Notes: a model not told the origin generated them from the sequence alone. 64,000 bases of DNA from an uncultured Gammaproteobacteria bacterium (GCA_964473715.1 CAYYQC010000001.1:60674-124673); one strand, 5' to 3'. Positions 21,969-60,368 are shown, numbered from the stretch's first letter. Numbers and translations: made by a program.

Positions 21969-21980
21969 CAGAACAGAACG

Positions 21981-24339: not shown

Positions 24340-24738
24340 ATGTCTACTAGACCCAAAATCCTCATTGACGCTGGTTATGAAATTTATTGTGACACTCTAA
24401 AACTCCGAGAACTTGATGTTCCAGTAGTTGATTTTGCCATTGAAAAATTAATCTGGAATTTTGATTTACCACTGTGGGATAAGGATGGAACTGATGATTG
24501 GAATTTAACCGCATGGGAAGTAATTAATAAAATTCCTGATAGTATTACTCACCAACAAAGAATTGCTGAAGCTGATTTACAATTCCCGATTTTATTAACC
24601 GAGAAAAATGATAAGTGGTTAGTGATTGACGGTGTGCACCGATTAGTAAAAGCTTTTGAAGCAAAACAAAAAACAATTAAAGCAAAAATATTTACCCAAA
24701 CACAGGTGGATAGCCACCCTAACACTAGCAGGCATTAA
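24340..24738 (+). CDS. hypothetical protein with a possible ParB/Srx-like nuclease-domain motif
   Basis: WLVIDGVHRLVKAF resembles the ParB N-terminal-domain DGHHR-type motif. Weak. Confidence 0.4.
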   Translation: MSTRPKILIDAGYEIYCDTLKLRELDVPVVDFAIEKLIWNFDLPLWDKDGTDDWNLTAWEVINKIPDSITHQQRIAEADLQFPILLTEKNDKWLVIDGVHRLVKAFEAKQKTIKAKIFTQTQVDSHPNTSRH

Positions 24739-40777: not shown

Positions 40778-41854
40778 TTACAAAGCAGAACTCGTATTTA
40801 CTTGTCCAGGAATTCGCAAACTTTCTATCATCATTTTGAGTGTGGTACGATAATTAATTGGTGCATTTACTAATGGGTGGTATAAAATAACTACCACTTG
40901 TCCGGGCATATCCACGTACAAGACCAAATTATCTTTACGCATGTAATAAGAAGTTTTAAACGCATTAGAAACAGTTTGTAAATCAGTAATTTGTTCATCT
41001 TTAGCCACGCGACCAAACCATCCAGAAAAATCTTCAGTATTATTTTTAGTAAAAATCCTCACTTCTACATAATCGCCATTACCAGCCGTAAAAAGCATGG
41101 TATTAGAACCAGCGTCCACACTACCTGCTTGCCAAGAAATTGGATAATACAAACGGTACACATCACGTGGATGTGTAAATTCTCGGACTAATCCAGACTC
41201 TGCTAAACGCACTGGGCTAATACCTTTTGGGTTATATAAATTGAGCACCTCTTGACCATCACTATATCCATCACTATCACTATCAAAAAGCGAAGAATCA
41301 GTATCAAAAATTTCTTCCTCCAAATCAGTTAAAGTATCAGAATCTGCATCAATGGCGTTTAATTGATTAATTGCCGGAAAATCTGGGGATAACTCAGACA
41401 AAACAAAGGCTGTGCTTGTTGTCGTAAAATTAGAAGTAGAAGTGGTAGTTAACACTTCAGTAGAAGTGACTGTGGATGTCACAGTTTCCACTGGTGTGAT
41501 TTGAACAGGGGCAGGATCATTAGATTGCGGCATTTCTTTTGAAGTGGTTTCTGTGGCCGCAGGACCAACTCCCCCACCTAAATATTTCCAATACCCCCAA
41601 GCTGCGCCAGCTGAGACTATCAAAAAAATAATAATCATGACAAAGGCAATAAGTTTGGTATGACCAGAAGATGAAGAAGATGAACCAGCGCCACCGATAG
41701 AAGTAACACTGTTTGGTTTTACACTTTTACTAGCCGCGGCTCCACGAAGTCCAGCTTCTGGATCACTGCCACCATAAAAAATTTCTGGAATAGTCTGAAC
41801 TGACCCAAGCGCGGGTTTTGGTGCAGCGGTTTTTGCAGCGCGCTTGAAAAACAT
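40778..41854 (-). CDS. single-TM surface protein with a Ser/Thr-rich stalk and thrombospondin-type-3-like Ca-binding repeats (paralog 1 of 3)
   Basis: TM IIIFLIVSAGAAWGYWKY. DTDSSLFDSDSDGYSDGQEVLNLYNPKG motif. Confidence 0.6.
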   Translation of the reverse strand: MFFKRAAKTAAPKPALGSVQTIPEIFYGGSDPEAGLRGAAASKSVKPNSVTSIGGAGSSSSSSGHTKLIAFVMIIIFLIVSAGAAWGYWKYLGGGVGPAATETTSKEMPQSNDPAPVQITPVETVTSTVTSTEVLTTTSTSNFTTTSTAFVLSELSPDFPAINQLNAIDADSDTLTDLEEEIFDTDSSLFDSDSDGYSDGQEVLNLYNPKGISPVRLAESGLVREFTHPRDVYRLYYPISWQAGSVDAGSNTMLFTAGNGDYVEVRIFTKNNTEDFSGWFGRVAKDEQITDLQTVSNAFKTSYYMRKDNLVLYVDMPGQVVVILYHPLVNAPINYRTTLKMMIESLRIPGQVNTSSAL

Positions 41855-41857
41855 AGA

Positions 41858-42751
41858 CTAAGGTTTAGTTTCAGCACTTGGAGTGGTGGTTGGAGTATTG
41901 GAAGCAGTGCTAGTAGTGGTAACAGCAAATAACCTACCATCACCATTTGGATTATAACCATTTTTAATTTCCGCGGCATCCTCATAGGTATCACCGTCAG
42001 TATCTGCCTTGAGCGGGTTAGTTTTCCAGGTAAGGACTTCATCTCCATCGCTTAAAGTATCGCCATCAGAATCCCAAGCAAGCATATTAGTACCTTTTTC
42101 TTTTTCTACACTATCATCCAAACCATCACTGTCAGTATCCAAAACTGGTTCACCAAACAAAATTAAACTATCAGTAGAAGTATTATTATCTAATTCAATA
42201 GTAGTCGTAACTACGCTATCAGTGTTTTGATTATTTGATGGTGTAGTGGTTGGAATCAGAGCGGTGTTATTTGGCAGCACTTGAGTGTCTGGTGGATTAA
42301 TATAAGTAAAATAAGCCCATGCAGAGCCACCACCAATAATAATGATTGAAAGCAAAACAATTACAGTAATTAAAGCTTTATGACCACCGAGTGGGGCAGC
42401 CAAAACACCATCAGAATTAGCATTTACAGGCATTGGCATAGGTTCCACAGACTCACGACGTGGAGGTGTAGCCATGGACACAGGCAAGGGTGCTGGTTCG
42501 GCCAAAGGAGGCATTTCTGGCTCCATCATGGGCTGTGGCATTGGCACAGATTCGATTTTTGGACGCAATACTCCTGCATCAAGCGCAGTAGGCGGCATGT
42601 TGATTGGGTCAGGCTGAGGCAAAGCAGGCTCTACATCAGCACCAGAAAACATGTCTTCTGGTTCACCCATGGGTAAATTATTTGGCACTGCACCGGCTGG
42701 AGGATTGTTCTGATTATCAAACATACGATTAATTACCTTTATAACGTTCAA
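41858..42751 (-). CDS. single-TM surface protein with a Pro-rich N-terminus and TSP3-like Ca-binding repeats (paralog 2 of 3)
   Basis: TM LLSIIIIGGGSAWAYFTY. DTDSDGLDDSVEKEKGTN...DSDGDTLSDGDEVLTWKTNP...DTDGDTYEDAAEIKNGYNPNGDG motif. Confidence 0.6.
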   Translation of the reverse strand: MNVIKVINRMFDNQNNPPAGAVPNNLPMGEPEDMFSGADVEPALPQPDPINMPPTALDAGVLRPKIESVPMPQPMMEPEMPPLAEPAPLPVSMATPPRRESVEPMPMPVNANSDGVLAAPLGGHKALITVIVLLSIIIIGGGSAWAYFTYINPPDTQVLPNNTALIPTTTPSNNQNTDSVVTTTIELDNNTSTDSLILFGEPVLDTDSDGLDDSVEKEKGTNMLAWDSDGDTLSDGDEVLTWKTNPLKADTDGDTYEDAAEIKNGYNPNGDGRLFAVTTTSTASNTPTTTPSAETKP

Positions 42752-43718
42752 GTTTTTTGCCCTGACTAGCGTCTTGCAAAAACTTAAGGGTAGTTGGTGA
42801 TAAATTTGGCAAAGTCATTTTGGCTTTTACAAAAACAAAGCCATTGTTTTTGATAGCAGTAGTGGAGAAATTTCCATCTCCAACTGGATTAAATCCTTTT
42901 AAAATTTCTAAACCATCTCTAAAACCATCACCATCAGTATCAGCATTGGTGGGGTCTGTACCAAAACGCTCAAGCTCAATACTATCAGAGAGACCATCGC
43001 GGTCAGTATCAAAATCACTGGTACTAAGGCCAAGGGTATTTTCATCATTATCTTCAACACCATCTGAATCTCGATCATTTTCTAAAATTGGAGCAACGCC
43101 TTCAGGAAGATTTTGATCACCAGAGGCTTTGATAAAATTAGTTTGCAAAAATTGTTTTGTTTTAGTGTTTTCATTAGATAAATTTCTAAGAACTTCATCT
43201 AGAGCATTTTGCCAAGCTGCATCATCGGACATATTATTCAATTCTTCAATCACATTTTCTGCTTGCACAAAGTACGCACTTGCTTGAATAACCAAGTTAT
43301 TAATAGCTTCGGGATCAGCATCTGACCATTTAGATTCACTTTTATTTACTTCAGCTACAAACTCTTCAGATTTTTGAGCTAATTTTTTAGCCTGATCAAT
43401 AGCCTTTTCATCAGCCGAAGTAGTGGTGAGTAATTGTACAAATTTCAGATTATCTTCTGCAAACTTTAACCGAAGTGTAGCGTCCCTAGTAGCGTTAAAT
43501 GAAAATAATAATTGAAAACGCTGACTTATACCACGGAAAAAAAATCCTACGTTACTTGGAATCTCAGCATTCACTGTGGCAGAGGTGTTAGTTTGCGCAG
43601 TCACAGCAGTTCGACTTGGTGCGGTTTGCGTAGTCACTACCTGAGCCTGGACACTGAGCGCCGGTTGAGAAATAACACCCAAAACCAAAGTGACAACGAT
43701 AATAAGATTTTTTTTCAT
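42729..43718 (-). CDS. secreted protein with TSP3-like Ca-binding repeats (paralog 3 of 3)
   Basis: Signal peptide MKKNLIIVVTLVLGVISQPALSVQA. DRDSDGVEDND...DTDRDGLSDSIELERFGTDPTNADTDGDGFRDGLEILKGFNPVGDG motif. Confidence 0.6.
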   Translation of the reverse strand: MKKNLIIVVTLVLGVISQPALSVQAQVVTTQTAPSRTAVTAQTNTSATVNAEIPSNVGFFFRGISQRFQLLFSFNATRDATLRLKFAEDNLKFVQLLTTTSADEKAIDQAKKLAQKSEEFVAEVNKSESKWSDADPEAINNLVIQASAYFVQAENVIEELNNMSDDAAWQNALDEVLRNLSNENTKTKQFLQTNFIKASGDQNLPEGVAPILENDRDSDGVEDNDENTLGLSTSDFDTDRDGLSDSIELERFGTDPTNADTDGDGFRDGLEILKGFNPVGDGNFSTTAIKNNGFVFVKAKMTLPNLSPTTLKFLQDASQGKKLERYKGN

Positions 43719-43755: not shown

Positions 43756-46700
43756 TTAGTTAGGGCAAGTCACAGGCACTTTACCTGGCATATAGCTAAA
43801 TAAGCCGGTTGAACATTTATGGAATAAACCATTCTGGTACAATTGACCATTACTAGTACCATTAGCCTCTTTTCCTTCAACTGGTTTAATTGTATATTTT
43901 CCACTTTCTTTTACCATATTAAAGACTTGCCAGTAACTATAAGCAGAGGCTGCTGACCCTGTAGGCAAATTAGCGTCCTTAATTTTAAAGGTATAATCTG
44001 GCTCATACACAGAGTACAGAGAAATATCACTGGCATTTAAACCATTCTTAGGCAGCGGTTTATTAGTATAAACCAATACTTCCAAAGAGCTATTTTTACT
44101 ACTACCAATCGATGTTCCATTCAAACTATTTACAAAGAAAGTAAATGGTTTTCCACTCTGCAAATAATCATTGGTAACCAAGGTAAAGGTTTGGATAAAT
44201 GTTTTTCCAGACACTGAAACTTGGTTTGGACTTGCGATAATACCGTAATTCGATTCACAAGTTTCTCCTTGAGTGGCAGACTGCGAAGGTGTCCAAAATG
44301 TTCCTGCGCGCATCATACTACTACAGAGCGCAGTTTGATTATAATTGTTCCACCAACCTTTCATAGCATAAATTCGATGATCTTGAATGCCTTTGGACCA
44401 AATATTTTCATCAAATTTATTAAAGTCTTCATTATACAAGGCACCATTAAATTCCGCGGTTTTATCTTGGTCAGTCCATTTTAAGACAATCCGGAAAGTA
44501 TCTGGTGGCACAGATGGAGAAGTAATTAATTCTTGTACAACCGGCGCATTTGCCGACTGAGCGTTCACGGTGAATGGGAACAAAGTACCATTTATTTTTG
44601 CTGTTGGAGCAATAGTCATGTAACTATTATTGTTATTTTCCAAAACTTTACTTGGGTTAAACAACATTGAGTAACGATTAACACACATTTTATCTTGTTC
44701 TACTTGCAAGGCCTTGGTTGCATCAACCAAGCTCTTGAAACCAATTTGCGGCACATTAATTGTAGGATTTGCTAAATTATTTCCACCAATCAAAGCATAA
44801 CTATCTGCACCCTGTTTGCGGTAAAAATAAAAATCATTTGTACCCGGCCACTCACTTCCCTTTGGACGCTCATTCCAAATTTTTTGAATTGGATTAAGGA
44901 TATTAATAATTGGTATTACACCTTGAGCACTTGGTCCACAAGCCACACATTGTTGAACCAATAATGTGCAGTTACTCTTACATGAATAACTACCTTGGTC
45001 AGAACATATAGCTGGAACAGTATTATTGTTTTGCTTCATTACTATCTGTCCTGTAGTACTAAAATCACATTGTTCATTTTTATTTGCGTCAATAACACCA
45101 TTACCACAAAATGCATTCTGATCAACAGTTAGAACCTTACAGCCATTACCACAATATGAACAAGAATCTTGGTTTGGCCCTGGTACACAGGCTTTATCAT
45201 TATTTTCACCCGCGTCACATTCTTCACCAAGAATTTTTTCAGTAGTACCATTTCCACAAGATGGATTTGTCCCCGATGAAGAACCTGAATCATTAGGCGC
45301 ATTATTTACGCTACAACTAGCATTTAATGGATTATCTGGACCTGGAGTAGGTACATTAATTCTCAAACATTTAAATTCAGTACCCTTAAGCGGAGCATAG
45401 GAATCATTAATTATCATTGGTGAACTTGGTGCGCCTTCAGCATATACTCTATGATTTGTAGAGCCAACCAGGGTTTGATATGTACTTGCCTTACGACAGT
45501 CAGAGTCAGTGGTGCAGCCAAAAATTTCGGTTTCATTACCCTGAGGTGACGCGTAAATAAATTTTGTGTTATAGGCACAAGCAAAGGCATCATCAGCTAC
45601 TTTCTCAATTTTTTTAAGATCAGTTCTAATTTTAACAGCATATGGTTCAGAATTTTCAGTTACAGGAATACTTGTACATTCAAGTGCATTTTCACAACGT
45701 AAATCATACGTATCAAAACTACAATATTTTTCTAATTTACACACTGAGCTACAGGAATCACCATTTGTTGTATTCCCATCATCACAAGTTTCTCCATTAG
45801 CTGATTGTATAAATCCATCACCACAATATCCTCCATAATTACGGCAATCCCAAGCACATGATTTATTACGATCAACATTATATTTAGCGGTAAAGCCATC
45901 AATACCCGCTTCACAAAATTCCAAGGTTTTTTTGGCAGAGTCAATGAAATCTTTTTGATTATTTCCACAACGCGCTGCAGCTAAGCCAGTACAAATAGCA
46001 TTACAATGACCATACGAGTCATTTAAAGCACCATCATCACACACTTCAGCACCCTCTACTTTTCCATTACCACAACTACCGGTTGAAGCACAGCTGCCGT
46101 ATTGCCAGGTACACTGACTGTTACAAGTACGTTTTACTAATTGTCCTTCAGAGCAAGTTTGTGGAGTAACAGTTGGTACGGAGCATGAACTTAACCCAGC
46201 ATAAAAGTTATTTGACTCAAGCACTTGGTTCGGAGTCTGACAGGTAAATAAATTATTAATATTTTGGTTCAAATCATTGGTTAGTTCAGCATAAGAGCGC
46301 ACAAATCCGCCTGGCCCATAACTTACTTGTCCATCATAATGACGATATGATTCATTTATACTTCGACAATTATTATCAGTACTACAAGGGAATGTTTCGT
46401 ATTCACCTTGTGCGTTTAAAATTGGATCATATTTAAGCACTGGGTTAAATTTATTAAATACGCAGAAATTTGCGCTGCTTGGTAAATGATAAACATTTGC
46501 AGTGTTAAAGCTGGTTGTATCACAAGTTAACTTATTACCGCTATCAGCAAAAAACTGTTTGAGAGGAGCAGCGGTAAGCGCTTGATAATTAGGCTTAACC
46601 GGTAAATATAAATTTTTTCCATTTGTTGGGTGGAATGAAAGCAAGGCGTGTGTAAAATTATAATTACCCGGAGCAGAATTAACCCCCTGTACAAAAGCAT

Positions 46701-49700
46701 CACAATCAGCATTTGTGGAACACGATAAAAGTTTATATTTTGCTGCGACTGGATCGCTATCTTTTACCACTGCCAAAGCAGATCCAGCCACACCCACACA
46801 GGCACCCTTGGCATTTGTATCCAAAGTAAACTTGCCATTAATATACCGGCCAACGCTTCGGCCAATTCTTCCACAATCATCATCACTATTACAGGCTTTA
46901 GCCACTGCCCACTTGGAGCAATGGTCATAGGTTGTTTGTACATCAGTATCAGCAAGTTCCACAGTTCCTGGAGGGTCACACTGTTCTGCCTGATTTAAAA
47001 TACCATCACCACATTTTTCCTGAAATGGATTATATGAACCAGTTGAACATCCTGACCAAGGCGCAGTAGTAAAGCGTTCCACATCCACATAATCCTTAGT
47101 AATTTGGTCAGTAGTTTTGAAGAATTCTAAAGGAGCATGCAATTTATAAGTATTGCCATTTTTAATGTATTCATATTCATACACACTCTTAAATTTAGGA
47201 CAGAAATACGTGGTACTTGAAGCACTCCAACAGGTTTGTGGGTCATCTGCATTACAAGTTGTCCAACGATTAAGTGGGTCACTAAATGAACCTTTGGTCA
47301 TTTCTTGCAAACGCCCCCAAGACTCACCCCATTTTGAAACAGTATAACCTGGCACAAATGAACCGCCCGCAAAAGTACCTTTAAAATCAGGGTTACTACC
47401 TTGGGTAGCAAAGAAAGTATCAATATTATCTTGAGCCACGCGTAAATCATTTAACCGTTTCCAATCGCGAAGGAATTTAGTACGCGCATTTGAACAAGTA
47501 CCGATGGTACCATTCTTAGGTGTACCAGCCGCGTCACGACAATCAAAATCAGTTGTGCATTGTTCAGCATTAATAGCGTTTGGATTTGTACGGATATTAC
47601 CACCCGCAATCAAACAGTGATTGTGATTAGAAAGATTAGTATTAAAATTCAAGCGTTGTAATAATTTGTTAAATACTTCACGGGTTTTACTATCTGCATT
47701 TGGATTAATACTAAACAAGTACACATAACTATTTACCGCGTTACTAGCAGAGGTTGATTCATAATTCAAAGCCTGAATATAATAATTATTTCCATCAGTT
47801 AGAGCTCCGTATTCTCCAATGACTTCGGAACGGAAACTTGCCACTGAACCAAATTTTTGGGTTTGACTAAACCATTCAGTGAGCGGCACATTGACTGGTC
47901 CAAAAATTTGAATACCGATAACATCACTATTTTTATCATTAAAGAATACTAATTTTTTGAGTGAATCAGAACTAAGTGGTCCACTTTCCAAACTCTGTTG
48001 ACGTAAATATGGTAGATCATCAGCATCATTAGTGGCACTACCAGCATCAGCACAATAACCAGTTTCATAATTATAAACCGCATCACGGAATGGATAACCT
48101 GGATTAGCGGGCCATGGGCGTTTACAGAATAAAGCTTCAAGTTCAAAAGTATCATTGAAAACTTGTCCCAATTGATTATTTTCTGCACTCGTATCCGCTG
48201 TAACTTTGGCCATGGCTACGCCAGTAATTTTACCTGGTACATTTTTGGCACGAACATTTAAAACATCGGTTTTAGCAGTATCAGTTTGAGAGAAATCAAA
48301 CACACTGTTTGGATTTGGCGCCCAAGTCCAGGTCCAAGCATAGCCAGGAGTAGAAACAATCTTTTGACCATTAGTGCTGGTGGCAAAAGCCGTGAATGTT
48401 TGTGTACTATTTGGCTCGTTAAACACATGAGCTGGAGGAGTTACTCCAACCTCTTTAATTTTACAGATATTATTACTGGTTTTAAAGAACCAGGCATCAT
48501 TACGAGCTGAACTGCCCATAGCTTTCATAGGTACACCACCCATGTCTACAATTCCACCCACATCACCACGCAAAATCACCCCGTAAATAGTATTTGCATC
48601 CAAGGTCTTACCAATCTCTAAAGATACACGACTAATTGTATCTAAACCTGATGAAACTTCACTTTGCACAGAAACTGACACAGGAACTTCTCCATTACAC
48701 CAAGTTTTGATAGATTTAAATTCCTGAGTACCAGAAACAGTGGTGGCACCAGCTTCTGTGGCCCAAATATTTTTTGTCCAATCAGTCAAACGACCCCAAA
48801 GCTTGGCCCAAAAACCTTTTACTTCTATTGGACTAGCCGCAATAATTTTATTAACAGTATCGGTAAAGTTTTGACCTTGCACAGCACTACAATCAAAGTT
48901 CGCGGCAGTATGGCCAGTTACTAAGAATACATTTTGGTTGATTGATTCCGCGCGCATTTCTCGATCAAAAGATACTTCCACTTTAGTATTTCGACAAACA
49001 TTTTCTGACCCTGCAAAACCAGCGCCATCTACTGGATATTCGGCCAACGGTCGAGGACGTGGCACACAACAAGAATTACCACCTACACCCAAATTATTAT
49101 CTGGATTACTTGGACAATTGTTATATGATTTATCAGTAGTCGCAAAATCGTATTCTTTGTATCCACATTGCAATTTATAATCTGCAACACCAGTAATATT
49201 TTTACTACCGTCTTTAGTAGAGGCAGTAACTTTAGTTTGTTGATATGTGGTACCAGCCACTGGATTGGCCTTACCTACAGCCTGAACAATTTGCGTTGGA
49301 CCGACTAAATCATTAGGATTATTTTTATTAGTCTGATTAAGTTCACAACTTGGATTTTCTCCAGTTCCCACTTGACGATCACCACACACAGAAGGAGATG
49401 AATATGTAGATTTAGAACCAAGCAACGTACATTTATCACTACATCCAGGCGCGTTTTTAACACACGGTGGATTTGTAAGCGCACAAGCATCGATAAACTG
49501 ACATGATTTATTACACATGGCCGAAGTGACGGTATCATTACCAACTTTTACACCTACTTCACAATCTTCATTTGGCTCTACCTTACCATTACCACAAATA
49601 CTAACAGCCGCTTTACATGAAGGGTCGGTGCTAAAACCAATATTTGCCAAACACCATGAAGCAGCCGTTTGTGTACCTTGGTGTAAACACTGCGCAGAAC

Positions 49701-52700
49701 AACCATTTTGTGAATTTGGGTCAGAAATGTCACAGGTTTCTTGACCTGCAGTAACTTCACCATCACCACACACAGCCACACCAGGTACATTGGTGGTTGT
49801 AGGTTTTGAACCGCGAAGTACACAGGTGTTGGTACAATAAGCATTATTATTTTTTACTTTTCCCGCTTCATTACCAGGATCACACTGCTCACCACGATTT
49901 GACTCAACCACGCCGTTACCACAAACTCCAGCTCCAGTTTTTTCTGCACGATAGGCATCATTATTACCTGGACGCAAACAATTCAAAGCACAACTAGTTC
50001 CTGGCACTTCACCTGCACCACCAATATCACAATCTTCACCAGCTTCAGGCAATCCACCATTACCACAAATTGGATTATTTTTAGCCGCTGAATCTGAAGC
50101 AATGGTACTGCCTTTTTTTACACAGGCCAAAGTACAAGCAGGGTTAACATTTGAATATTGCGCAGCTGGTAATTGAGAAATTTTAGCGACATTAACATTT
50201 TCAGTGCTCCAACTATATTGGTATGCCCACTTACTAAGGGCTTGCCCCACTTTACTGCATGCATTTGGCGCGCTATATGGCACCACAGTATATTTATCTT
50301 GTTGGCCGACAGTGGTAGCCGTTAAATCAAGTGGACTTACTTGCAAGAAACCAACACTACATGGTTTTGCATCAGCCCGTGTTTTAAACACCCATTGCGT
50401 TGGTGGCAATGGTTTGCCATATACAGTTGGGTTAACACGCGCAATAGATTTAATAGCCAGACTCGCGCCATTTAAACTAACTTTATAATATTGATTAGGA
50501 TCTAGATTTGGACCAGACGCACTTAGATGTGCACGCAGTGTAAGTTGCGTAGAATTTTCCGTATCAATCGTATAGATAGAAGTTGGTTGTGTGTTAGCAC
50601 AAGTAACACCATCCATACATTTAAATACTTGGAATCCAGAAGCATAGGTACTCGTCACCATTTGACGATTAAAATCCACACGGATACTCGCATTGTTACA
50701 AGATTCAATACAATTTGGTTCATAATATGTCACGGCTGGATCTGCCAAGTCAACAAACAAAGTACTCGTTGGACTCAAAGTAATTTTAGAGTTGGAATTT
50801 AAAAAGCTAGGTATTGATCCTGAAACCTGCATGCCAAAATAAATTGGACCCTTGGCATTAGCTGGATTCTTTTCTGCAGCTAAAATCACCAAAGCATTTC
50901 CTGAATTAGGAATAGCAGTTAAAGGAATTTCAAAAATAGGACGGTTTGGCGGAACCAAATCTACCCAATATAAAGAATTTTTTGCTTTATCCCCCACCAA
51001 TATTACATTGTACTGACCATTGGCATCAGCCGTAACCGTAGTACAAAGATTTACACTTGAACCACTTCCACTATACGGATTCAAACAAACCTGATTATTA
51101 ATAAATTTAATAATATATCCACTTGGTTTACCAGGAACAGAAGTGTCAACTTTTTGCACTAAAGTATTATTTGGGAACGTGCTTTTTTCTGGTTGTGTAA
51201 ATTTGAGTTGTAAAGCAAAAGTATTTTGCAAAGATAACTGATTACTGACAGTTTGAGTCAAATTAGTTGGAGCAGTAGGGGCAAATCCAGCCTGACCCAC
51301 AGTAATATTAGCGGCTTGTAAAATATTAGTACCACCAATGTCAGTAGAATTTAAATTAGGTCCAGATTCAATAACCGCTTCAGCTTTAATAACCGCAAAA
51401 TCTGGAGAGGTATGAGCGCGCGCAGTAACAAGTGCGCGGATATTTTTGTATCCAGCAATTCCCGGCGCAGCGGCCACTGGTGACTTGAGTGCGGTGGCCA
51501 AATCAGACCCACTTTGACCTTCAGACGGTGACCAATTCCAAGCATAGGTATCTACTAACTGTGAAGAAACCACTGAACATTCTTGATTACCTTTACCCCA
51601 AACAAAATAATACAATGGATGCACTGGGATACTTGGTGGAATAAACACTTTACTACTATCAAATGGATATCGTGTGTCTTGGAGCACACCCAAATTACGC
51701 GCAGTGTATGTGCGCGGATTAATCGCAGCCCCAGTCAAAGTACATTCACTGGCATTTGTTTTAAAATTAAAACAATACGCAGTACCTTTTCCACAAGCAC
51801 GACTCGGTAAAAGCGGAGTATTAATAGTTTGATTTACACCAAGTACAGTCGCATGTTCTAAAGAAGTAATTTTTTCTGATAATTCAATTTGGTACCAGGT
51901 ATTTGATTCCAAATTATTTTTTGGCGGAGCCTCACGAATAATTAAAGTATTTGCACCAGTTTGATACGTAATATCCAAAGAATCTACTGCTGTTTTCTTT
52001 TCATCACAATCAATCCGATTACCTGGACCAGCTGCACAAGCAAATAATTTAATATTTTCTTTGGTTAAAGTATTTGGATCCATGCCCATGTTAAATCTAA
52101 GTGCAATAGTGGCATTCACACATGAGGCAGTGTTAGCCGCAGAAGTTTGTTTTACACGTGGAGTTGGCGAAGGGAAGTCAACATCATTACACTGTTCCAC
52201 TACTTGTGGCTGATTAGCCAAAACACCTGTCATAAAACGCCAAGTATAACCAGCCGCGCGTGTTTCTCCGGCACAAGCTAAATTATTCTTTTTCCACTGA
52301 CCTTCTTCTAGACCAGATTCACAACAGCGATACCCAGGTAAAGGAGTTTTATTACCAATACAACTTTCAACAGTATAATTTACAGCATTACTCCAACGAC
52401 CACTTTCATTGTCAAAAACACGAATTGGTCCACTGGACATTGATACGCCATTTTCATCTACCGGTAAACGAGTGGAAAAACCAGTGCCGTTTGGAAATCC
52501 TGACACTACAGGTGCTTTTCCTTCTGGAGTATCGTGACTCAAATTATATAACCAACCATCAATACCAGAATTAGTATTTGGGTTAGGTACAGCTCCTTTT
52601 TTCCAATAAATAACATCAATCACACCAGGACCTGGCACATTCACACCATAAATAGAAATTGGTGCGCCATCTACTGGCAATGGTGCAGGACCTTTACTTG

Positions 52701-55185
52701 GCATAATCCGACACAAACCAACTCCTGGTGGACCAGGTTCAATAACTATTGTTTCTTGACCATTGGTTTTTTGCACTGGAGGACCAGACGTTTTGACCAT
52801 GATATTAAAAATTTTTATCCCGCCATCAACAAAAAGCTTATCTTGAGGTGGAGGCAACTGAGCGATCACTTGTGTGTCTGTCCAAGTTTGACCACATTGA
52901 CTACCAAGGTCAGTGACTTTTAGACTACGGCAGCTAAGGTCAGGAGTACCAGTATCACAAGTTTTAACCGTGTTAGCGCTAGAAGCAATAAAAATTTTGC
53001 CGATAGTGTTACCAAAGCCCTTACCCTGAATGGTAATAAGACTAAGTGGTGTACTAGTGGCTGGAGTAATCGAACTAATTTGGGGCACTGAAAGATTTAC
53101 CACTGAACTAAGCACTTGAAATGGCACACCATTACTAGATTGTCCATTAATACGCGCATGCACTGGTACCAAACCAGCTTTCATATTAGCTGGTACCCGA
53201 GTACGAATTTCGGTATCGGTCCAATAATTATCAACGATTTCCCCCACCACACCACCTATCAAAGTACCATCAGTTTTTTTAGAAGCACCAAAGAGTAAGG
53301 CATTGCCATTTGCACCACCAAGACCATTACCTACGGCTTTCAAATTTACACCTGGTGGCGCAAAAGTATCATCGGCAAATAAATTATATTCTTTACCGTC
53401 TTGATTAACTTTAGTATCAGCAAAAACCGACACATCGCACAAACCTGGTTTTTTAACATTATTCACAGTAAACAAACCAGTTCCACCAGGACGAGTACCA
53501 AAATTATCAATTGAAGTATCTGTTTTACCAGCAGCAGTAGTAATTCGAATCGCGGCTTTAGTAGATACCGGCAAATTTGGTACAGCTACAATCACCCAGC
53601 GATCAGTCCAAGAACCTTTAGTTCCACAAGGCACTATCACGGCCTCAGTCCATGTATAATTTCCACCCGTACCTTCTACACCAAACTCCACTTTACCTTT
53701 GGTATTAGCAAAATTTTTACCCAAAACAGTTATCCAATTCCCAGGCGCACCATTTAATGGATCAATTCCAGTAATAATTGGCATGGCTCGACAAACTTTA
53801 TCAATACATTGAAAACCATTAGCACAATCAGCATTTGAAGAACAACTATCCCCTTCTCCACCACCACAAGAACCACCGCTATCTACTCCAGTTTCATCTG
53901 CATCTTGAATATCATTGTCACAATGACCACCTTTCAGAGTAAATGAAAGACTGGCTGTGACTACATTATTATCAATATCATGACCAGTGAGAGCGACAAT
54001 GTATTTTTGTCCAGCAACGAATTTTGTATCAAGCAAAAGTTTATAGCTGAATTCAAATAACTCAGAAGAACCCTGATTAACTCTAGGCGCAGTATACGCT
54101 GTGTAAATTGGTGAACCACCATTGGCCGCAGAAACCGCAATCTTAATAAGACTATTACCACCGAAGCTATTTTGTCTATCAAACATTTCCCCTCCCACTG
54201 AAAGCGTTTTGCCTTGGGCAAGGCTAATATTTTCTCCAGAAAAACCATTTAAATTAAGATTACTGAACAAAGGTTTAACGGTATCGTTAAAAGCCGTATC
54301 AGCGCGATAATGTGCAGTAATTGGGAAAGTATTTCCACCAAACTTATAATCAACCTCTAAACTTTTACCAGCTGTATCTTTTAAGTTTTTATTTACAGTC
54401 ACAATATATGTGACATTTGGTTTAAATGGAATTGGGCTACCATTTGGCGCGTAATACACTTCTAAAACTTTATTATTCTCAATAATTGAGGTAGATACTG
54501 GCAAAGGACCCGTACCACCAACTTCTTGAACAAAAACTGATTGTGCTAAATTAACATCAGTGGCCAATGCATGACTAAAGAGTACACGAATCGCAATATT
54601 ATTCATGCCGGTGGCAAGTGCTTCGTCTGTAACCAAATTACCCGGAGTAATACTCTTTACATAAAAGACCGTGTCTTCACATACGCTTAATTCCGGATAT
54701 TTCTTACACTGGCTATCACAATCATTTGGCAATTCTGGATTACATTCTGGCCCATCAGATCCATCACCAGAATCATCACTAGAACCAGTACCACCACCGA
54801 CAATTGCATCATTTAATTGCTTAAAGACAAATAAAACAATGGCCCAAGCAGATAAGATAATTACAAGACCAATGGTGGCATTGATAATATATTTTTTTCC
54901 TTCAGCAATTTTTTCTTCACTACCGTTTGACGTCATGTACAAAAAGCCACCGTACAAAATCAATCCAACAGTAATAATCCCAAGTAACCCAAGTGCAATA
55001 TTAATAATCCGTCCAGCAATTTCACGAGGGTCATCAGCCGAAAGTTTTACCGTATTACCAATTTGCGCCACGCCAAAAGTGTCACCAGCATTTGGGTCAA
55101 CCTGCGCTTGCGCCACAGTGGCCATGCCAAACAAAAAAATACTGAGAGCCAGGAAAATACTTATTTTTTTGAAGCGTGGACTCAT
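43756..55185 (-). CDS. giant (3809 aa) surface protein: signal peptide, VirB2/TrbC-like two-helix pilin-like anchor module, IPT/TIG Ig-like domains, numerous Myxococcus-type Cys-rich repeats
   Basis: Single 11.4-kb ORF. N-terminus ...AGRIINIALGLLGIITVGLILYGGFLYMTSNGSEEKIAEGKKYIINATIGLVIILSAWAIVLFVF. IPT-like PIITGIDPLNGAPGNWITVLGKNF. Repeats such as CGNGKVEGAEVCDDGALND and YCGDGFIQSANGETCDDGNTTNGDSC. Confidence 0.85.
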   Translation of the reverse strand: MSPRFKKISIFLALSIFLFGMATVAQAQVDPNAGDTFGVAQIGNTVKLSADDPREIAGRIINIALGLLGIITVGLILYGGFLYMTSNGSEEKIAEGKKYIINATIGLVIILSAWAIVLFVFKQLNDAIVGGGTGSSDDSGDGSDGPECNPELPNDCDSQCKKYPELSVCEDTVFYVKSITPGNLVTDEALATGMNNIAIRVLFSHALATDVNLAQSVFVQEVGGTGPLPVSTSIIENNKVLEVYYAPNGSPIPFKPNVTYIVTVNKNLKDTAGKSLEVDYKFGGNTFPITAHYRADTAFNDTVKPLFSNLNLNGFSGENISLAQGKTLSVGGEMFDRQNSFGGNSLIKIAVSAANGGSPIYTAYTAPRVNQGSSELFEFSYKLLLDTKFVAGQKYIVALTGHDIDNNVVTASLSFTLKGGHCDNDIQDADETGVDSGGSCGGGEGDSCSSNADCANGFQCIDKVCRAMPIITGIDPLNGAPGNWITVLGKNFANTKGKVEFGVEGTGGNYTWTEAVIVPCGTKGSWTDRWVIVAVPNLPVSTKAAIRITTAAGKTDTSIDNFGTRPGGTGLFTVNNVKKPGLCDVSVFADTKVNQDGKEYNLFADDTFAPPGVNLKAVGNGLGGANGNALLFGASKKTDGTLIGGVVGEIVDNYWTDTEIRTRVPANMKAGLVPVHARINGQSSNGVPFQVLSSVVNLSVPQISSITPATSTPLSLITIQGKGFGNTIGKIFIASSANTVKTCDTGTPDLSCRSLKVTDLGSQCGQTWTDTQVIAQLPPPQDKLFVDGGIKIFNIMVKTSGPPVQKTNGQETIVIEPGPPGVGLCRIMPSKGPAPLPVDGAPISIYGVNVPGPGVIDVIYWKKGAVPNPNTNSGIDGWLYNLSHDTPEGKAPVVSGFPNGTGFSTRLPVDENGVSMSSGPIRVFDNESGRWSNAVNYTVESCIGNKTPLPGYRCCESGLEEGQWKKNNLACAGETRAAGYTWRFMTGVLANQPQVVEQCNDVDFPSPTPRVKQTSAANTASCVNATIALRFNMGMDPNTLTKENIKLFACAAGPGNRIDCDEKKTAVDSLDITYQTGANTLIIREAPPKNNLESNTWYQIELSEKITSLEHATVLGVNQTINTPLLPSRACGKGTAYCFNFKTNASECTLTGAAINPRTYTARNLGVLQDTRYPFDSSKVFIPPSIPVHPLYYFVWGKGNQECSVVSSQLVDTYAWNWSPSEGQSGSDLATALKSPVAAAPGIAGYKNIRALVTARAHTSPDFAVIKAEAVIESGPNLNSTDIGGTNILQAANITVGQAGFAPTAPTNLTQTVSNQLSLQNTFALQLKFTQPEKSTFPNNTLVQKVDTSVPGKPSGYIIKFINNQVCLNPYSGSGSSVNLCTTVTADANGQYNVILVGDKAKNSLYWVDLVPPNRPIFEIPLTAIPNSGNALVILAAEKNPANAKGPIYFGMQVSGSIPSFLNSNSKITLSPTSTLFVDLADPAVTYYEPNCIESCNNASIRVDFNRQMVTSTYASGFQVFKCMDGVTCANTQPTSIYTIDTENSTQLTLRAHLSASGPNLDPNQYYKVSLNGASLAIKSIARVNPTVYGKPLPPTQWVFKTRADAKPCSVGFLQVSPLDLTATTVGQQDKYTVVPYSAPNACSKVGQALSKWAYQYSWSTENVNVAKISQLPAAQYSNVNPACTLACVKKGSTIASDSAAKNNPICGNGGLPEAGEDCDIGGAGEVPGTSCALNCLRPGNNDAYRAEKTGAGVCGNGVVESNRGEQCDPGNEAGKVKNNNAYCTNTCVLRGSKPTTTNVPGVAVCGDGEVTAGQETCDISDPNSQNGCSAQCLHQGTQTAASWCLANIGFSTDPSCKAAVSICGNGKVEPNEDCEVGVKVGNDTVTSAMCNKSCQFIDACALTNPPCVKNAPGCSDKCTLLGSKSTYSSPSVCGDRQVGTGENPSCELNQTNKNNPNDLVGPTQIVQAVGKANPVAGTTYQQTKVTASTKDGSKNITGVADYKLQCGYKEYDFATTDKSYNNCPSNPDNNLGVGGNSCCVPRPRPLAEYPVDGAGFAGSENVCRNTKVEVSFDREMRAESINQNVFLVTGHTAANFDCSAVQGQNFTDTVNKIIAASPIEVKGFWAKLWGRLTDWTKNIWATEAGATTVSGTQEFKSIKTWCNGEVPVSVSVQSEVSSGLDTISRVSLEIGKTLDANTIYGVILRGDVGGIVDMGGVPMKAMGSSARNDAWFFKTSNNICKIKEVGVTPPAHVFNEPNSTQTFTAFATSTNGQKIVSTPGYAWTWTWAPNPNSVFDFSQTDTAKTDVLNVRAKNVPGKITGVAMAKVTADTSAENNQLGQVFNDTFELEALFCKRPWPANPGYPFRDAVYNYETGYCADAGSATNDADDLPYLRQQSLESGPLSSDSLKKLVFFNDKNSDVIGIQIFGPVNVPLTEWFSQTQKFGSVASFRSEVIGEYGALTDGNNYYIQALNYESTSASNAVNSYVYLFSINPNADSKTREVFNKLLQRLNFNTNLSNHNHCLIAGGNIRTNPNAINAEQCTTDFDCRDAAGTPKNGTIGTCSNARTKFLRDWKRLNDLRVAQDNIDTFFATQGSNPDFKGTFAGGSFVPGYTVSKWGESWGRLQEMTKGSFSDPLNRWTTCNADDPQTCWSASSTTYFCPKFKSVYEYEYIKNGNTYKLHAPLEFFKTTDQITKDYVDVERFTTAPWSGCSTGSYNPFQEKCGDGILNQAEQCDPPGTVELADTDVQTTYDHCSKWAVAKACNSDDDCGRIGRSVGRYINGKFTLDTNAKGACVGVAGSALAVVKDSDPVAAKYKLLSCSTNADCDAFVQGVNSAPGNYNFTHALLSFHPTNGKNLYLPVKPNYQALTAAPLKQFFADSGNKLTCDTTSFNTANVYHLPSSANFCVFNKFNPVLKYDPILNAQGEYETFPCSTDNNCRSINESYRHYDGQVSYGPGGFVRSYAELTNDLNQNINNLFTCQTPNQVLESNNFYAGLSSCSVPTVTPQTCSEGQLVKRTCNSQCTWQYGSCASTGSCGNGKVEGAEVCDDGALNDSYGHCNAICTGLAAARCGNNQKDFIDSAKKTLEFCEAGIDGFTAKYNVDRNKSCAWDCRNYGGYCGDGFIQSANGETCDDGNTTNGDSCSSVCKLEKYCSFDTYDLRCENALECTSIPVTENSEPYAVKIRTDLKKIEKVADDAFACAYNTKFIYASPQGNETEIFGCTTDSDCRKASTYQTLVGSTNHRVYAEGAPSSPMIINDSYAPLKGTEFKCLRINVPTPGPDNPLNASCSVNNAPNDSGSSSGTNPSCGNGTTEKILGEECDAGENNDKACVPGPNQDSCSYCGNGCKVLTVDQNAFCGNGVIDANKNEQCDFSTTGQIVMKQNNNTVPAICSDQGSYSCKSNCTLLVQQCVACGPSAQGVIPIINILNPIQKIWNERPKGSEWPGTNDFYFYRKQGADSYALIGGNNLANPTINVPQIGFKSLVDATKALQVEQDKMCVNRYSMLFNPSKVLENNNNSYMTIAPTAKINGTLFPFTVNAQSANAPVVQELITSPSVPPDTFRIVLKWTDQDKTAEFNGALYNEDFNKFDENIWSKGIQDHRIYAMKGWWNNYNQTALCSSMMRAGTFWTPSQSATQGETCESNYGIIASPNQVSVSGKTFIQTFTLVTNDYLQSGKPFTFFVNSLNGTSIGSSKNSSLEVLVYTNKPLPKNGLNASDISLYSVYEPDYTFKIKDANLPTGSAASAYSYWQVFNMVKESGKYTIKPVEGKEANGTSNGQLYQNGLFHKCSTGLFSYMPGKVPVTCPN

Positions 55186-55188
55186 ACG

Positions 55189-57444
55189 TTAAGGAAGAGT
55201 GGATGGACTTACAGCTTTCATTTTTTCAATACAAGTGGCCACATCTGGCTGACTTAAATCATTCTCATTAATTCCAAAGACACAGGCTGAATCTTTGAGC
55301 GGATCAAATGAACCACTTAAATTTTTATTATTTGGCGCACAATTCTCATTTTGAGTCGGTACTCCATTTACGTCTTCAGCGTATATGCAGGTCGGTGAAG
55401 TGTTCTTTTGCCCAAGTACATGTACTGGTCCACGACCTGGATATAAACATTGCTGATTATCCCCTCTAGCAGTACTTGATACGTAAGTAAAATAGTAAAG
55501 ATCAAGACCGCCAGTACCAAAAGTACGCGGATGTTTAATTTCTGAAATCGTTGAATCACCGACATCTTTTAAATCCATGTAATATGGAAAATCTTCCAAA
55601 CGCACATTATCAATTCCCATACGATTGGCTGGATATTCTATTACTCCAGCGCCATTCATGACAGAATTGTACAGCATTATTCGACTAAAGTAAATTTGAA
55701 TATCTTCAGTTCCTTTTACCCCTTCGCCCTCAAGCGGAGGCTTTACATTCGTGATATACGGAATGACCATGTCTTTGTCATTTTGCACCTTAAATGACCA
55801 ATAAAAGTTATCAGGATTTTTTTCTTGAACTTCAATTTTTTTAGGGTCATTAGAACCCAATCTAAATGCATGGCGCCATGAGGGTTGAACTCCAGGGGCT
55901 GATTGCGCAATTACGCCATCAGATTTATTACCTGGACCATTATCAAGCGCATTGCCGGCCATGTCAGTCACACCGGTAAATGGCTGAGCCACAAATGAAG
56001 TCCCATTTTGATTTTGCAATTCTGCGGTACGAACCAAACCTTCATAATTAGCTGTACAAGCTTTATCGGCCACCCCACAACCTGGAGCAGGCAAACAATA
56101 CATTGGTTCACCACAACTATTTTGGCCACAAGATTCACTAGAAATGAATTCTACTGAACGGTACCCATTGGAAATACGCCATTCACCTTTCACTTCGGTG
56201 CTACCAAAAATAATATTATTAAAATTACTATTTGGACCAACAGCACCTTGAGTTACACTTGGATCCACAGGTTCATTAAAATCAATCCGAATAACAATAT
56301 TTCGTTTAATAGTACCACCATTTTTTGGAGAGGTGGACAATACATATGGCGGACTTAAATCTACCTTGGTACCTGTTTCAAAACTCCATGAATAAAATTT
56401 ACTGGCAAAATTATTTGGAAAAATATCTGAACCATTTAAACGTTTAATTCCGGCAGTATTTGATGAGCCACCAATTAATTTAGCAGTGTACCAAACATTA
56501 CTTACCTCATTACCAAGCAAAGTTAGGGGTTTAAACGTAAAGATAGTGGCTTTACGTGCTTCATCATAGGTTGTAATACCTACCATTTCTACATTACTTG
56601 TAGAGCTTGCTTTAAAAAATAATTGTACTGAACCGTTTTTAACACGATCACATTCATTACTAAGTGAAACCACCTTATCTCCATCAATATCAGTACAATC
56701 TCCATAATATGGAATAGGTTGTCCACTATTAGCCCCAGATGTATAAACTGCACAGGCACCAGCGGCAATTTTTACAGCTTTGCTTCCCCCATCAACCGGC
56801 CAACAAGTATTATTGGTATTTTCCACAATACTTTCTGGCAAAACTGGTTCAGCAAAAGTTACTGACAACGCAGTATTGCGGAATACATCCACTTGGTTAG
56901 GGCGAGGATAATGATCTTTAATAATCGCACCTAAACCACCAGTACCAGAATATGAGGCAAAAATTGGTTTTTCCGGATTATCATTATTTCCACTTTGATT
57001 TCCACTACTTAAACCAAATGCATCAGATAAAGATTTTAAAACAAATTGAACAATAGCAAACGCAGAAATAATTATTACAAATCCAATAAGTGCGTTTACC
57101 ATCACTCGTTTTCCTTGTGCAACTTTTTCTTCATTACCCGCTGAAGTCATGATTAAAAATCCAGCGTAAAGCACTAATCCAAACGCAATAATCCCAAGCA
57201 AACCAAGAACAACACTAATTAATCGACCAGCAATGATCCGAATATCAGTATCACCTAGCCGAATGTTATTTTGAATTGGTTGCAATCCTAATGTGTCAGC
57301 ATCAGTTTGTGCGTTTACAATTCCAGCGGCAAAAAAAATATTAAAAAAAACAAAGACTACTGCCAATCCGGTTATGCACCAGGCAATAGTCTTGTTTAGA
57401 CGTAAATTCGGTCGAATCCAGGGAAGCATGAGCCAAGGATCCAA
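55189..57444 (-). CDS. large (751 aa) surface protein with the same VirB2/TrbC-like pilin-like N-terminal module; immediately upstream of the giant gene
   Basis: ...IAGRLISVVLGLLGIIAFGLVLYAGFLIMTSAGNEEKVAQGKRVMVNALIGFVIIISAFAIVQFV is clearly homologous to the giant protein's N-terminus. The two genes are separated by 3 nt. Confidence 0.8.
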   Translation of the reverse strand: MDPWLMLPWIRPNLRLNKTIAWCITGLAVVFVFFNIFFAAGIVNAQTDADTLGLQPIQNNIRLGDTDIRIIAGRLISVVLGLLGIIAFGLVLYAGFLIMTSAGNEEKVAQGKRVMVNALIGFVIIISAFAIVQFVLKSLSDAFGLSSGNQSGNNDNPEKPIFASYSGTGGLGAIIKDHYPRPNQVDVFRNTALSVTFAEPVLPESIVENTNNTCWPVDGGSKAVKIAAGACAVYTSGANSGQPIPYYGDCTDIDGDKVVSLSNECDRVKNGSVQLFFKASSTSNVEMVGITTYDEARKATIFTFKPLTLLGNEVSNVWYTAKLIGGSSNTAGIKRLNGSDIFPNNFASKFYSWSFETGTKVDLSPPYVLSTSPKNGGTIKRNIVIRIDFNEPVDPSVTQGAVGPNSNFNNIIFGSTEVKGEWRISNGYRSVEFISSESCGQNSCGEPMYCLPAPGCGVADKACTANYEGLVRTAELQNQNGTSFVAQPFTGVTDMAGNALDNGPGNKSDGVIAQSAPGVQPSWRHAFRLGSNDPKKIEVQEKNPDNFYWSFKVQNDKDMVIPYITNVKPPLEGEGVKGTEDIQIYFSRIMLYNSVMNGAGVIEYPANRMGIDNVRLEDFPYYMDLKDVGDSTISEIKHPRTFGTGGLDLYYFTYVSSTARGDNQQCLYPGRGPVHVLGQKNTSPTCIYAEDVNGVPTQNENCAPNNKNLSGSFDPLKDSACVFGINENDLSQPDVATCIEKMKAVSPSTLP

Positions 57445-57474
57445 AATTTAAACTCTCCGGAGAGAGACCGGTGA

Positions 57475-57926: not shown

Positions 57927-58199
57927 TTATTTATTTCCAAATTTACCAGCTTTGGCAGCGCGACGAGCCATGAGTTCCAATTCTTTCTTGGAAAGCTTGC
58001 CTCGTTTGCGACGGTATTCAGTTTTAGCACGGGTTTCAATCCGAGTTAAAGCTGATTTACGGCGGCGAGTTTTGTTTGGTTTACCAGTGAAATGAGCACC
58101 TTTACGAGCTTCAAGTTGAATACCAGACATACTGACTTCTGTCTTGTAAGCGCGCATTAGAGCTTCAAATGACTTAGAACCTTTTTTTACTTCGATCAT
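57927..58199 (-). CDS. rpsU: 30S ribosomal protein S21 (start probably the ATG 6 nt after the AGGAGGTG site)
   Basis: MIEVKKGSKSFEALMRAYK...RKRGKLSKKE matches the bS21 pattern. Strong Shine-Dalgarno. Confidence 0.8.
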   Translation of the reverse strand: MIEVKKGSKSFEALMRAYKTEVSMSGIQLEARKGAHFTGKPNKTRRRKSALTRIETRAKTEYRRKRGKLSKKELELMARRAAKAGKFGNK

Positions 58200-58265
58200 A
58201 TTCACCTCCTGAGGGTGATTAAAAATAATACAGTTATACTACCCTAAAAAACCCAAAAGGTCAAA

Positions 58266-59753: not shown

Positions 59754-60368
59754 TTAGTAAGTGGGAGAACTAAAGGCTGACACTCTTGAAAATGGCCAAC
59801 CACGCACCCATACTCGACCCACAATATCACTGCCATCAATAGCACCAAAGCGACGTGAATCAAAACTAGCATCACGATTATCTCCCATTACAAAGTATTG
59901 ATCAGTGCCAAGCGTGAGAGTGACTGAACCCGCAGTTTCTTCAATTAAATATTCTTCGGGAAGTACTAATCCTTGAGGATTTTCCTCATTATAAATAATA
60001 ACTTTATTGGATTCTACTTTTACTCGTTCCCCTGGCAAGCCAATAATTCTTTTGAGGAAAAAATCATTGGTTGGATGATATTCAAATACCACCACATCGC
60101 CCCGATGGGGTTCATGAAACCGGTAGCTAAGTTCATCAATAATCAAGTAATCACGCTCTTCAAAATTAGGTTCCATTGATTGGCCTTTAACATAAAATGG
60201 CTTGAATAAGAAATATCGCACCAAGCCAATGGCAATACCAGCTAAAATCGCAATTTTAAGGAGTTCTAGTAGTACTGAACCAACTTTGGCAATTTTACTT
60301 TGAGGATTCACATCTTCAACCTCTTCATTTTCATGGTCATCATGCTCATGAGTCATATCAACCACCAA
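59754..60368 (-). CDS. lepB: signal peptidase I (S26 family)
   Basis: GQSMEPNF (catalytic Ser box), RGDVVVF, GDNRDASFDSRRFG boxes. Confidence 0.85.
   Translation of the reverse strand: MVVDMTHEHDDHENEEVEDVNPQSKIAKVGSVLLELLKIAILAGIAIGLVRYFLFKPFYVKGQSMEPNFEERDYLIIDELSYRFHEPHRGDVVVFEYHPTNDFFLKRIIGLPGERVKVESNKVIIYNEENPQGLVLPEEYLIEETAGSVTLTLGTDQYFVMGDNRDASFDSRRFGAIDGSDIVGRVWVRGWPFSRVSAFSSPTY

Follow-up and report, generated by a model that had tools for sequence, protein, structure and literature searches.

The pilins of type IV secretion systems (T4SSs) that resemble VirB2 are widespread in Patescibacteria (the Candidate Phyla Radiation, CPR), where they are encoded in arrays of 2-11 genes (PMC12102498, PMC10633639, PMC12857230); such an array is essential in Southlakia epibionticum (Wang et al. 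2023, PMC10633639; PMC12102498), a pilin lies near virB4 in only 1135 of 1948 assemblies, and no PrgB-type adhesin has been detected in Patescibacteria (PMC12102498). Pilin modules fused to large ectodomains are not described in these three papers, nor were they otherwise found in the literature. The stretch of DNA considered here (64,000 nucleotides, CAYYQC010000001.1:60674-124673 of assembly GCA_964473715.1; hereafter the window) encodes on its minus strand two adjacent proteins of this make-up, a giant of 3809 amino acids (43756-55185, ATG start) and a smaller one of 746 (55189-57429). Each precursor is a complete pilin, with its signal peptide, short mature tail and two-helix hairpin, continued by a low-complexity linker and a large disulfide-rich ectodomain. 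The reading that both genes encode extended VirB2-like pilins, taken together with the export, packing and contact mechanism proposed below, is given a probability of about 0.5; of its parts, surface display on a pilin-derived hairpin appears highly probable from the sequences, the association of the pair with a pilus or a T4SS is a tentative and somewhat doubtful suggestion, and a role in host contact is rated about the same.

Among the known systems, the standalone VirB2-like pilins of Patescibacteria (PF18895; ~120-140 residues) come from the same phylum, and the N-terminal ~130 residues of the window proteins align with them end to end at 40-50% identity, sharing the signal peptide, a tail with the motif D.GL..LG..D.R and a helix-loop-helix with the motif YGGF.WMTA.GNEEK. 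Unlike them, the window proteins are not small, since an ectodomain of 590 or 3640 residues follows the hairpin; their genes belong to a housekeeping operon and are neither neighbours of VirB4 nor members of a pilin array, and they are conserved one-to-one across the class, whereas the standalone pilins are variable paralogues. The pair thus departs in three respects from a working T4SS pilin as currently understood: the proteins are not small, their genes have no T4SS or pilin array around them, and they match neither PF04956 directly nor, by sequence, a solved pilin. As for the TrbC/VirB2/TraA family (PF04956), whose members build the Gram-negative F, T and RP4 pili, the precursor plan is common to both, with a signal peptide and a two-helix hairpin that has a short polar loop, but the window proteins are 6 to 30 times longer, their host presumably has a single membrane, and neither a VirB5-type tip protein nor T4SS genes are adjacent.

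Minor or tip pilins with large domains occur in type IV pili and in type II secretion (for example GspK, CofB/TcpB); in them, the pilin module carries a bulky domain that fits only at the filament tip. These proteins offer a working analogy with the window pair, although the fold (a type IV pilin N-terminal helix instead of a VirB2 hairpin) and the assembly machinery are unrelated. Extended VirB6 of the Rickettsiales shows that a small membrane component of a T4SS can carry very large hydrophilic extensions of unknown function (PMC12857230); unlike the window proteins, it is a polytopic VirB6 and not a pilin, it has no sequence relation to them, and it belongs to Gram-negative organisms. The CPR Pam pili, which reports place in Saccharimonadia and Microgenomatia and not in ABY1, are built of Ig-like pilins by donor-strand exchange, for which the pilin has a sandwich of nine strands, together with a linker strand plus a truncated Ig domain (bioRxiv 10.64898/2026.03.03.709456); like the window pair they are CPR-specific, extracellular, Ig-like and exported by a signal peptide, but they are described without a VirB2-like hairpin, and this description sets them apart. 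Finally, the PrgB-type adhesins of Gram-positive conjugation, anchored through LPxTG, would have the same candidate role of a surface adhesin for a single-membrane T4SS; the window proteins differ in having neither a C-terminal LPxTG nor PrgB-type domains, and in being anchored by an N-terminal pilin hairpin. The closest analogies are therefore extended VirB6 and the bulky type IV minor pilins, the Pam pili being a different system.

Regarding the architecture of the module, each protein has exactly three hydrophobic segments, all N-terminal and within the first ~135 residues, in keeping with a first-pass annotation that had described a signal peptide and two hydrophobic helices; the polar turns quoted there between the helices, MTSNGSEEKIAEGKK in the giant and MTSAGNEEKVAQGKR in the 746-residue protein, are both present. 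The putative signal peptide of the smaller protein spans residues 1-40 (57310-57429; this and all other features of the pair are on the minus strand) and ends in VNA before Q, that of the giant spans residues 1-27 (55105-55185) and ends in AQA before Q; both were recognised as hydrophobic segments, with the cleavage sites predicted, in the smaller protein from the AxA motif. A40 is invariant and Q41 nearly so among 36 orthologues of the smaller protein, and A27 is invariant among 16 orthologues of the giant. The hairpin occupies residues 63-138 (57016-57243) in the smaller protein and 53-128 (54802-55029) in the giant, and is supported in both by PF18895 and by a hidden Markov model (HMM) of standalone pilins. 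Structure prediction, which had been proposed as a check, agreed with this layout: the AlphaFold2 (AF2) model of the 746-residue protein, made from an alignment of 36 orthologues (predicted local distance difference test score, pLDDT, 81.5; predicted template modelling score, pTM, 0.75), has a signal-peptide helix at 9-32, a disordered tail at 33-62, the two hairpin helices at 63-94 and 100-138, a low-confidence linker at 139-152, and a beta-rich ectodomain at 155-746.

The module is also the only part that the two proteins have in common. Their sole significant match by BLASTP joins residues 25-138 of one to 10-128 of the other (52% identity over 119 residues, E 3e-31), a similarity far above chance by sequence comparison, and outside these ~120 residues they are unrelated. 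The likeness to a T4SS-pilin family, which the first-pass annotation had noted, was borne out by Pfam, because both proteins pass the gathering cutoff of PF18895 T4SS_pilin (26.6 bits) with 32.8 bits for the smaller one (as 746 or 751 residues) and 43.0 for the giant, and the isolated module of the giant scores 49.0 bits. Both are also just above the 40-bit cutoff of NCBIfam NF045849 (43.1 and 40.4 bits), the Mbov_0395 pilin-like conjugal transfer protein of a Mycoplasma integrative and conjugative element; this is an equivalog model of 80 positions that matches only the hairpin of the much longer window proteins, which are thus not equivalogs.

A search with the first 140 residues of the giant gave 78 matches, all short (83-237 residues), of which 76 carry PF18895 and several also TrbC/VirB2 PF04956. 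The majority are standalone pilins of full length, while P0002 and P0003, at least, resemble contig-end fragments of the extended proteins. The HMM built only from the short hits of 100-190 residues, all from Patescibacteria, matched the giant with E 1.6e-43 and the 746-residue protein with E 1.5e-36, over HMM positions 4-130 and 9-131, and found no other open reading frame (ORF) of the window at E <= 10. In the multiple alignment, the standalone pilins end a few residues past helix 2, at the very point where the window proteins go on into their Gly/Ser/Asp-rich linkers; all 37 aligned modules match PF18895, and 22 of them also PF04956, with a best E of 4.9e-8. Given the full-length matches to PF18895 and to the standalone-pilin HMM, the module does not behave as a generic double-transmembrane anchor devoid of pilin homology, the outcome that had been named in advance as adverse. 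By these profile comparisons it genuinely belongs to the VirB2-like pilins of Patescibacteria, and its link to classical VirB2/TrbC is transitive only.

The family itself is large, with 87,117 cluster representatives at E <= 1e-3. Some public proteins, among them P0204 (552 residues), P0209 (1775 residues) and many others, are "poly-pilins", in which 2-17 tandem hairpin modules follow one signal peptide; the repeats are genuine, in-frame and joined by short linkers.

As for evolutionary constraint, the hairpin is the most conserved region in both families: its mean pairwise identity is 0.61 in the ~700-residue family, compared with 0.38-0.48 in the ectodomain, and 0.55 in the giants, compared with 0.27-0.42 elsewhere, and the polar loop (MT.GGNEEK) is conserved too. 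The hairpins of the two proteins of one genome share a mean identity of 52.8%, higher than the 43.0% of cross pairs from different genomes and even than the 43-46% of orthologous hairpins; permutation of the genome labels gave 0.431 +/- 0.005, and none of 2000 shuffles went above 0.45. The same-genome excess sits in the mature tail and the helices, and not in the signal peptide. Recent gene conversion was considered as the sole cause and discarded: it is not the main source of the similarity because residues shared by the two hairpins use the same codon only a little more often than expected (46.8% against 42.8%), with a larger codon excess at some loci. The same-genome similarity is thus read, from the sequences, as co-evolution or as old conversion.

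The pair belongs to a genome of uncultured Magasanikbacteria (CPR/Patescibacteria), and exact copies of both proteins are on record from the same 125,876-bp NCBI contig. The genes had been described as adjacent with a 3-nt spacing, and the junction indeed reads TAA cgt ATG. The ORF listed for the smaller gene (55189-57444) has 751 codons from a TTG; the gene probably starts five codons further on, at the ATG at 57429, because the public copy of the protein (P0079) is 746 residues long and begins MLPWIR. This protein has more than 260 database relatives, most of the named sources being Candidatus Magasanikbacteria; the top 120 relatives are 628-892 residues long, and all of them carry Big_5 PF13205 and nearly all PF18895 as well.

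For the survey of loci, one genome per GTDB species was scanned and 79 loci were returned, corresponding to at least 79 related species. The order signal peptidase I, HisRS, a small basic ORF, usually YqeY, the ~700-residue gene and the giant holds in essentially every locus that is long enough; locus L001 follows it too, and the pilin module is present in both genes at every locus that contains both. The comparison of lengths, suggested in the first-pass annotation, was run on the complete giant orthologues in the loci, which range from 2485 to 3459 residues and are collinear over their full length at 25-50% identity. Among cluster representatives, proteins with the N-terminal module of the giant reach 4344 residues (P0324), with the conserved motifs of the giant recognised by eye. 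The giant of the window has lineage-specific insertions near residues 1220-1470, 2780-3007 and 3150-3290. Overall, the two genes behave as core genes of the ABY1 class that are inherited vertically as a pair, and not as a mobile or hypervariable adhesin locus, a finding that complicates an adhesin interpretation.

Some loci depart from this layout. In L077 (a metagenome-assembled genome of Candidatus Uhrbacteria), L078 and L079, a standalone pilin gene for 123-165 residues stands between the ~640-residue gene and the giant, making a three-gene pilin array of medium, short and giant members. In L020, L027, L028, L030 and L031, and probably also in L038, L042 and L055, the giant is split at the same homologous site, corresponding to about residues 2592-2605 (~47370-47410 in the window); the downstream part has 650-1100 residues and, as observed in L020 and L030, starts with a signal peptide of its own, and therefore the C-terminal third of the giant can be a separate secreted protein. 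P0199 (890 residues, from a 2771-bp ENA contig) is a relative of residues 2099-2740 of the giant in which Laminin_G_3 (PF13385) replaces the usual upstream region, and P0324 has, by eye, extra segments inserted between the conserved motifs, one of them long and repetitive; giants thus tolerate domain insertions that are particular to a lineage.

The ectodomain of the 746-residue protein (residues 156-746; 55192-56964) is modelled as a string of Ig-like beta-sandwich domains, and a fold search with the AF2 model retrieved only Ig-like domains and arrays; an enzymatic role of this ectodomain was for this reason rejected. Big_5 Ig-like domains are present in both proteins according to Pfam. In the giant, the proximal ectodomain (residues 173-940; 52366-54669) comprises a Big_5 domain at 173-281, a Cys-rich knot and IPT/TIG domains starting at ~469 and ~701. 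The IPT/TIG domains, which the first-pass annotation had noticed, do not appear in the Pfam scan of the whole giant and pass the PF01833 cutoff of 20.9 bits in segment scans only, with scores of 25.5 and 31.1 bits and two stretches for each. The count of about ten Myxococcus-type Cys-rich repeats was also recovered, with ten copies of CG[ND]G..E.C[DE] by pattern search and a TIGR02232 score of 51.9 bits (cutoff 20.8), together with DUF4215 scores of 20-23 bits that are under its cutoff of 27. The first repeat block covers residues 1707-1950 (49336-50067), located by the pattern and with its cysteines kept across orthologues; the second, supported by the pattern and TIGR02232, lies with lineage-specific insertions at residues 2725-3374 (45064-47013). 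The giant has 136 cysteines in all.

Between the two blocks, residues 2350-2720 (47026-48138) form a conserved domain of unassigned fold with the motifs FCxxPWP, YCADAG and DDLPYL, conserved in 13 orthologues. Profile searches of the PDB sequences with residues 1950-2350, residues 2350-2720 and the C-terminal 520 residues returned nothing meaningful; per-member Pfam scans of the conserved regions added only Big_5 and gave no Pfam match for residues 2350-2720; and AF2 on residues 2099-2740, with an alignment of two sequences, produced no confident model (pLDDT 31). Neither protein has a C-terminal hydrophobic anchor or a terminal LPxTG signal, the sole LPxxG match being at residue 1712 of the giant, inside a Cys repeat; sortase anchoring was accordingly dismissed. 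Neither a recognised S-layer or anchoring domain, such as SLH, nor a structural similarity to S-layer proteins over the whole protein was found.

Judging from the three hydrophobic stretches, the predicted fold and the AxA motif with its invariant alanine, and from the signal peptidase I gene in conserved synteny, the two precursors would be exported by Sec and cleaved by signal peptidase I between AxA and Q. The hairpin would then stay in the cytoplasmic membrane with both ends outside, a topology that places the large C-terminal parts outside the cell, on the surface of a presumably single-membrane organism. The hairpin may be more than an anchor and may pack against the other hairpin, or against standalone pilins and the T4SS assembly site; such packing is proposed because the hairpin is the most conserved region and the hairpins of one genome co-evolve. 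If so, the ectodomains could be carried on a pilin polymer, or at its base or tip, as adhesive or contact elements. The pilin homology is the part of the first-pass interpretation that stood, and its placing of the proteins at the tip or in the sheath of a pilus that contacts a host is still conjecture. A bolder version, in which the pair is the missing adhesive organ of the T4SS-associated pilus of Patescibacteria, with ectodomains of ~65 kDa and ~400 kDa that nucleate or cap the pilin polymer and co-evolving hairpins that act as the assembly seed, is considered unlikely.

Several findings weigh against the extended-pilin reading, most of them touching its link to a T4SS. As the first-pass annotation had stated, the window has no VirB4 or VirD4: family searches of its ORFs, including every ORF of at least 400 residues, gave no T4SS or type IV pilus family. 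Locus L001 has none of these within 10 kb of the pair, and neither a T4SS nor a type IV pilus gene was seen in the 79 loci. The pair is not near virB4 and does not belong to a pilin array, with only L077-L079 (3 of 79 loci) having one extra pilin gene; its neighbours are those of a housekeeping operon, with signal peptidase I, HisRS and YqeY upstream and YbeY, diacylglycerol kinase, FtsA and FtsZ downstream. In favour of the reading, VirB4 is present, according to Table S1 of Quinonero-Coronel et al. 2025 (PMC12102498), in 6 of 7 Magasanikbacteria assemblies carrying the pair, so that the relatives do not show a genome-wide lack of T4SS machinery, the other outcome that had been named in advance as adverse; Table S3 of the same paper lists for GCA_000990355.1 two VirB4, TrsD, two T4CP, VirB1 and three VirB2, none of the latter flagged as near virB4. 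The standalone pilin that L077-L079 have between the two genes counts on the same side. The co-occurrence with VirB4 is, however, weak evidence because VirB4 is found in most Patescibacteria. The inspected arrays of standalone pilins are often away from VirB4 and include PF18895 proteins of 355-456 residues, and for this reason the label "T4SS pilin" of the family itself rests on limited evidence. We know of no VirB2 pilin with such an extension. Regarding the module, neither whole window protein matches PF04956 TrbC/VirB2 at E <= 0.01, nor does the isolated module of the giant at E <= 1; the module profile matched none of the solved pilins by sequence, and in fold comparison a two-helix hairpin is not diagnostic. 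Moreover, a tightly packed hairpin filament could not bear a domain of 3700 residues on every subunit.

Of the other explanations, an artefact was weighed in view of the unusual length of the giant and the TTG start of the 751-residue ORF, the long ORFs being then the result of mis-assembly, of a read-through gene call or of a chance hydrophobic match. Nothing in its favour was found, and it is set aside as having a negligible chance: besides the exact copies on the public contig, there are collinear orthologues in 79 independent assemblies, which refute an assembly or gene-calling error, and the HMM E-values are in the range 1e-36 to 1e-43. The main rival is that the hairpin was reused purely as an anchor, with N and C termini both outside, holding a constitutive coat or S-layer-like scaffold that serves envelope integrity and has no T4SS, pilus or host-contact role. 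Such a function suits the housekeeping operon, the single-copy, vertically inherited synteny in 79 species and the lack of T4SS genes nearby; the Ig-like string of the ectodomain resembled, among other targets of the fold search, the S-layer protein SbsC, and PF18895 modules also front proteins of 350-450 residues and form tandem poly-pilins with up to 17 hairpins, suggesting a versatile membrane module. However, if the anchor were passive, the functional ectodomain that it holds should be the slower of the two to evolve, and here the anchor is the best conserved part, polar loop included; the two anchors co-evolve within genomes; and the Pfam and NCBIfam scans detected no S-layer anchoring or lattice family. 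Constraint and correlation of this kind are not expected of a passive anchor, and the coat lies on the unlikely side.

The other rival starts from the same co-evolution and explains it with no T4SS, the two hairpins binding each other so that a membrane bundle holds a two-component surface fibre, a self-contained heteromeric stalk to which TSP3-repeat proteins would be calcium-dependent accessories. The two genes are always adjacent, 3 nt apart in the window; hairpin similarity is higher within a genome than between orthologues with codon identity only slightly raised, which favours co-evolution at the protein level over recent conversion; and the TSP3 genes are syntenic with the pair. Nonetheless, an older gene conversion followed by synonymous drift is possible, some loci having a larger codon excess, and a third partner common to both hairpins, with which each co-evolves, would leave the same trace. 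The stalk is held to be distinctly improbable. The extended-pilin reading, in which a hairpin may pack against its counterpart or, at a T4SS, against standalone pilins, keeps the probability given at the outset.

Turning to the neighbouring genes, the signal peptidase I (S26) gene at 59754-60368 (minus strand) is four genes upstream of the pair and ahead of it in almost all loci long enough; a functional link between them is something that we infer only. Downstream of the giant and on the same strand, the window has three TSP3-repeat genes, YbeY, diacylglycerol kinase, FtsA and FtsZ, and in L072 YbeY and diacylglycerol kinase are also downstream of the giant. The three TSP3-type genes (40778-43718, minus strand) encode membrane or secreted proteins of 329, 297 and 358 residues with acidic repeats, TSP3_bac being over its cutoff in two of them, and relatives of at least one are found downstream of the giant in L007, L029, L042, L072 and L075; these proteins may be accessory surface proteins, which again we only infer. 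Between HisRS and YqeY, a conserved ORF of 92 very basic residues (57927-58205, minus strand) is present in most loci and looks by eye like ribosomal protein S21, without a Pfam or NCBIfam match. The 45-nt gap between YqeY and the 746-residue gene contains a small GC-rich hairpin, CTCTC-TCCG-GAGAG (57453-57466, minus strand), followed by TTTAAATTTT, which may be a weak terminator or attenuator; terminator-like sites of the region are no commoner than in shuffled sequence, and the promoter and terminator scans of the region gave counts no higher than shuffled sequence.

Elsewhere in the window, three minus-strand ORFs without a Pfam or NCBIfam match, at 11657-15970 (1437 residues), 24735-26459 (574 residues) and 61755-63989 (744 residues), may encode additional surface proteins; the last one has two internal repeats of ~130 residues. 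A segment of ~4 kb at 8000-12000 differs in base composition (GC 0.53-0.58, against ~0.39 elsewhere) and has long ORFs that overlap on both strands; it gave no Rfam match, significant Pfam or NCBIfam match or notable tandem repeat, and could be foreign DNA, a chimera or an unusual gene. Two RNA genes, one for a tmRNA whose tag peptide is ANLFNQVKTAVARAFSPSFAPALA (19881-20272, plus strand) and one for tRNA-Asp (21895-21969), are ordinary.

In conclusion, the individual domains of the pair have already been seen by annotation pipelines, under names such as "pilin" and "Ig-like domain-containing protein"; as far as could be found, the extended-pilin architecture, the class-wide syntenic pairing and the co-evolution of the hairpins had not been described. 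Patescibacteria comprise perhaps a large share of bacterial diversity and many of them live on other cells; in the only species studied by genetics, both the T4SS and its VirB2-like pilins are essential. A conserved giant surface pair built on a pilin module provides concrete candidates for the element that contacts the host, and it raises the idea that large cargo may be assembled or anchored by way of the VirB2-type hairpin. If the pair were indeed the missing adhesive organ, it would be the first class of extended VirB2, and ABY1/Magasanikbacteria would have a host-contact machine conserved throughout the class. Should the hairpin serve only as an anchor instead, the T4SS_pilin family may have been annotated too narrowly, and the pilin counts of CPR bacteria would need to be read again.

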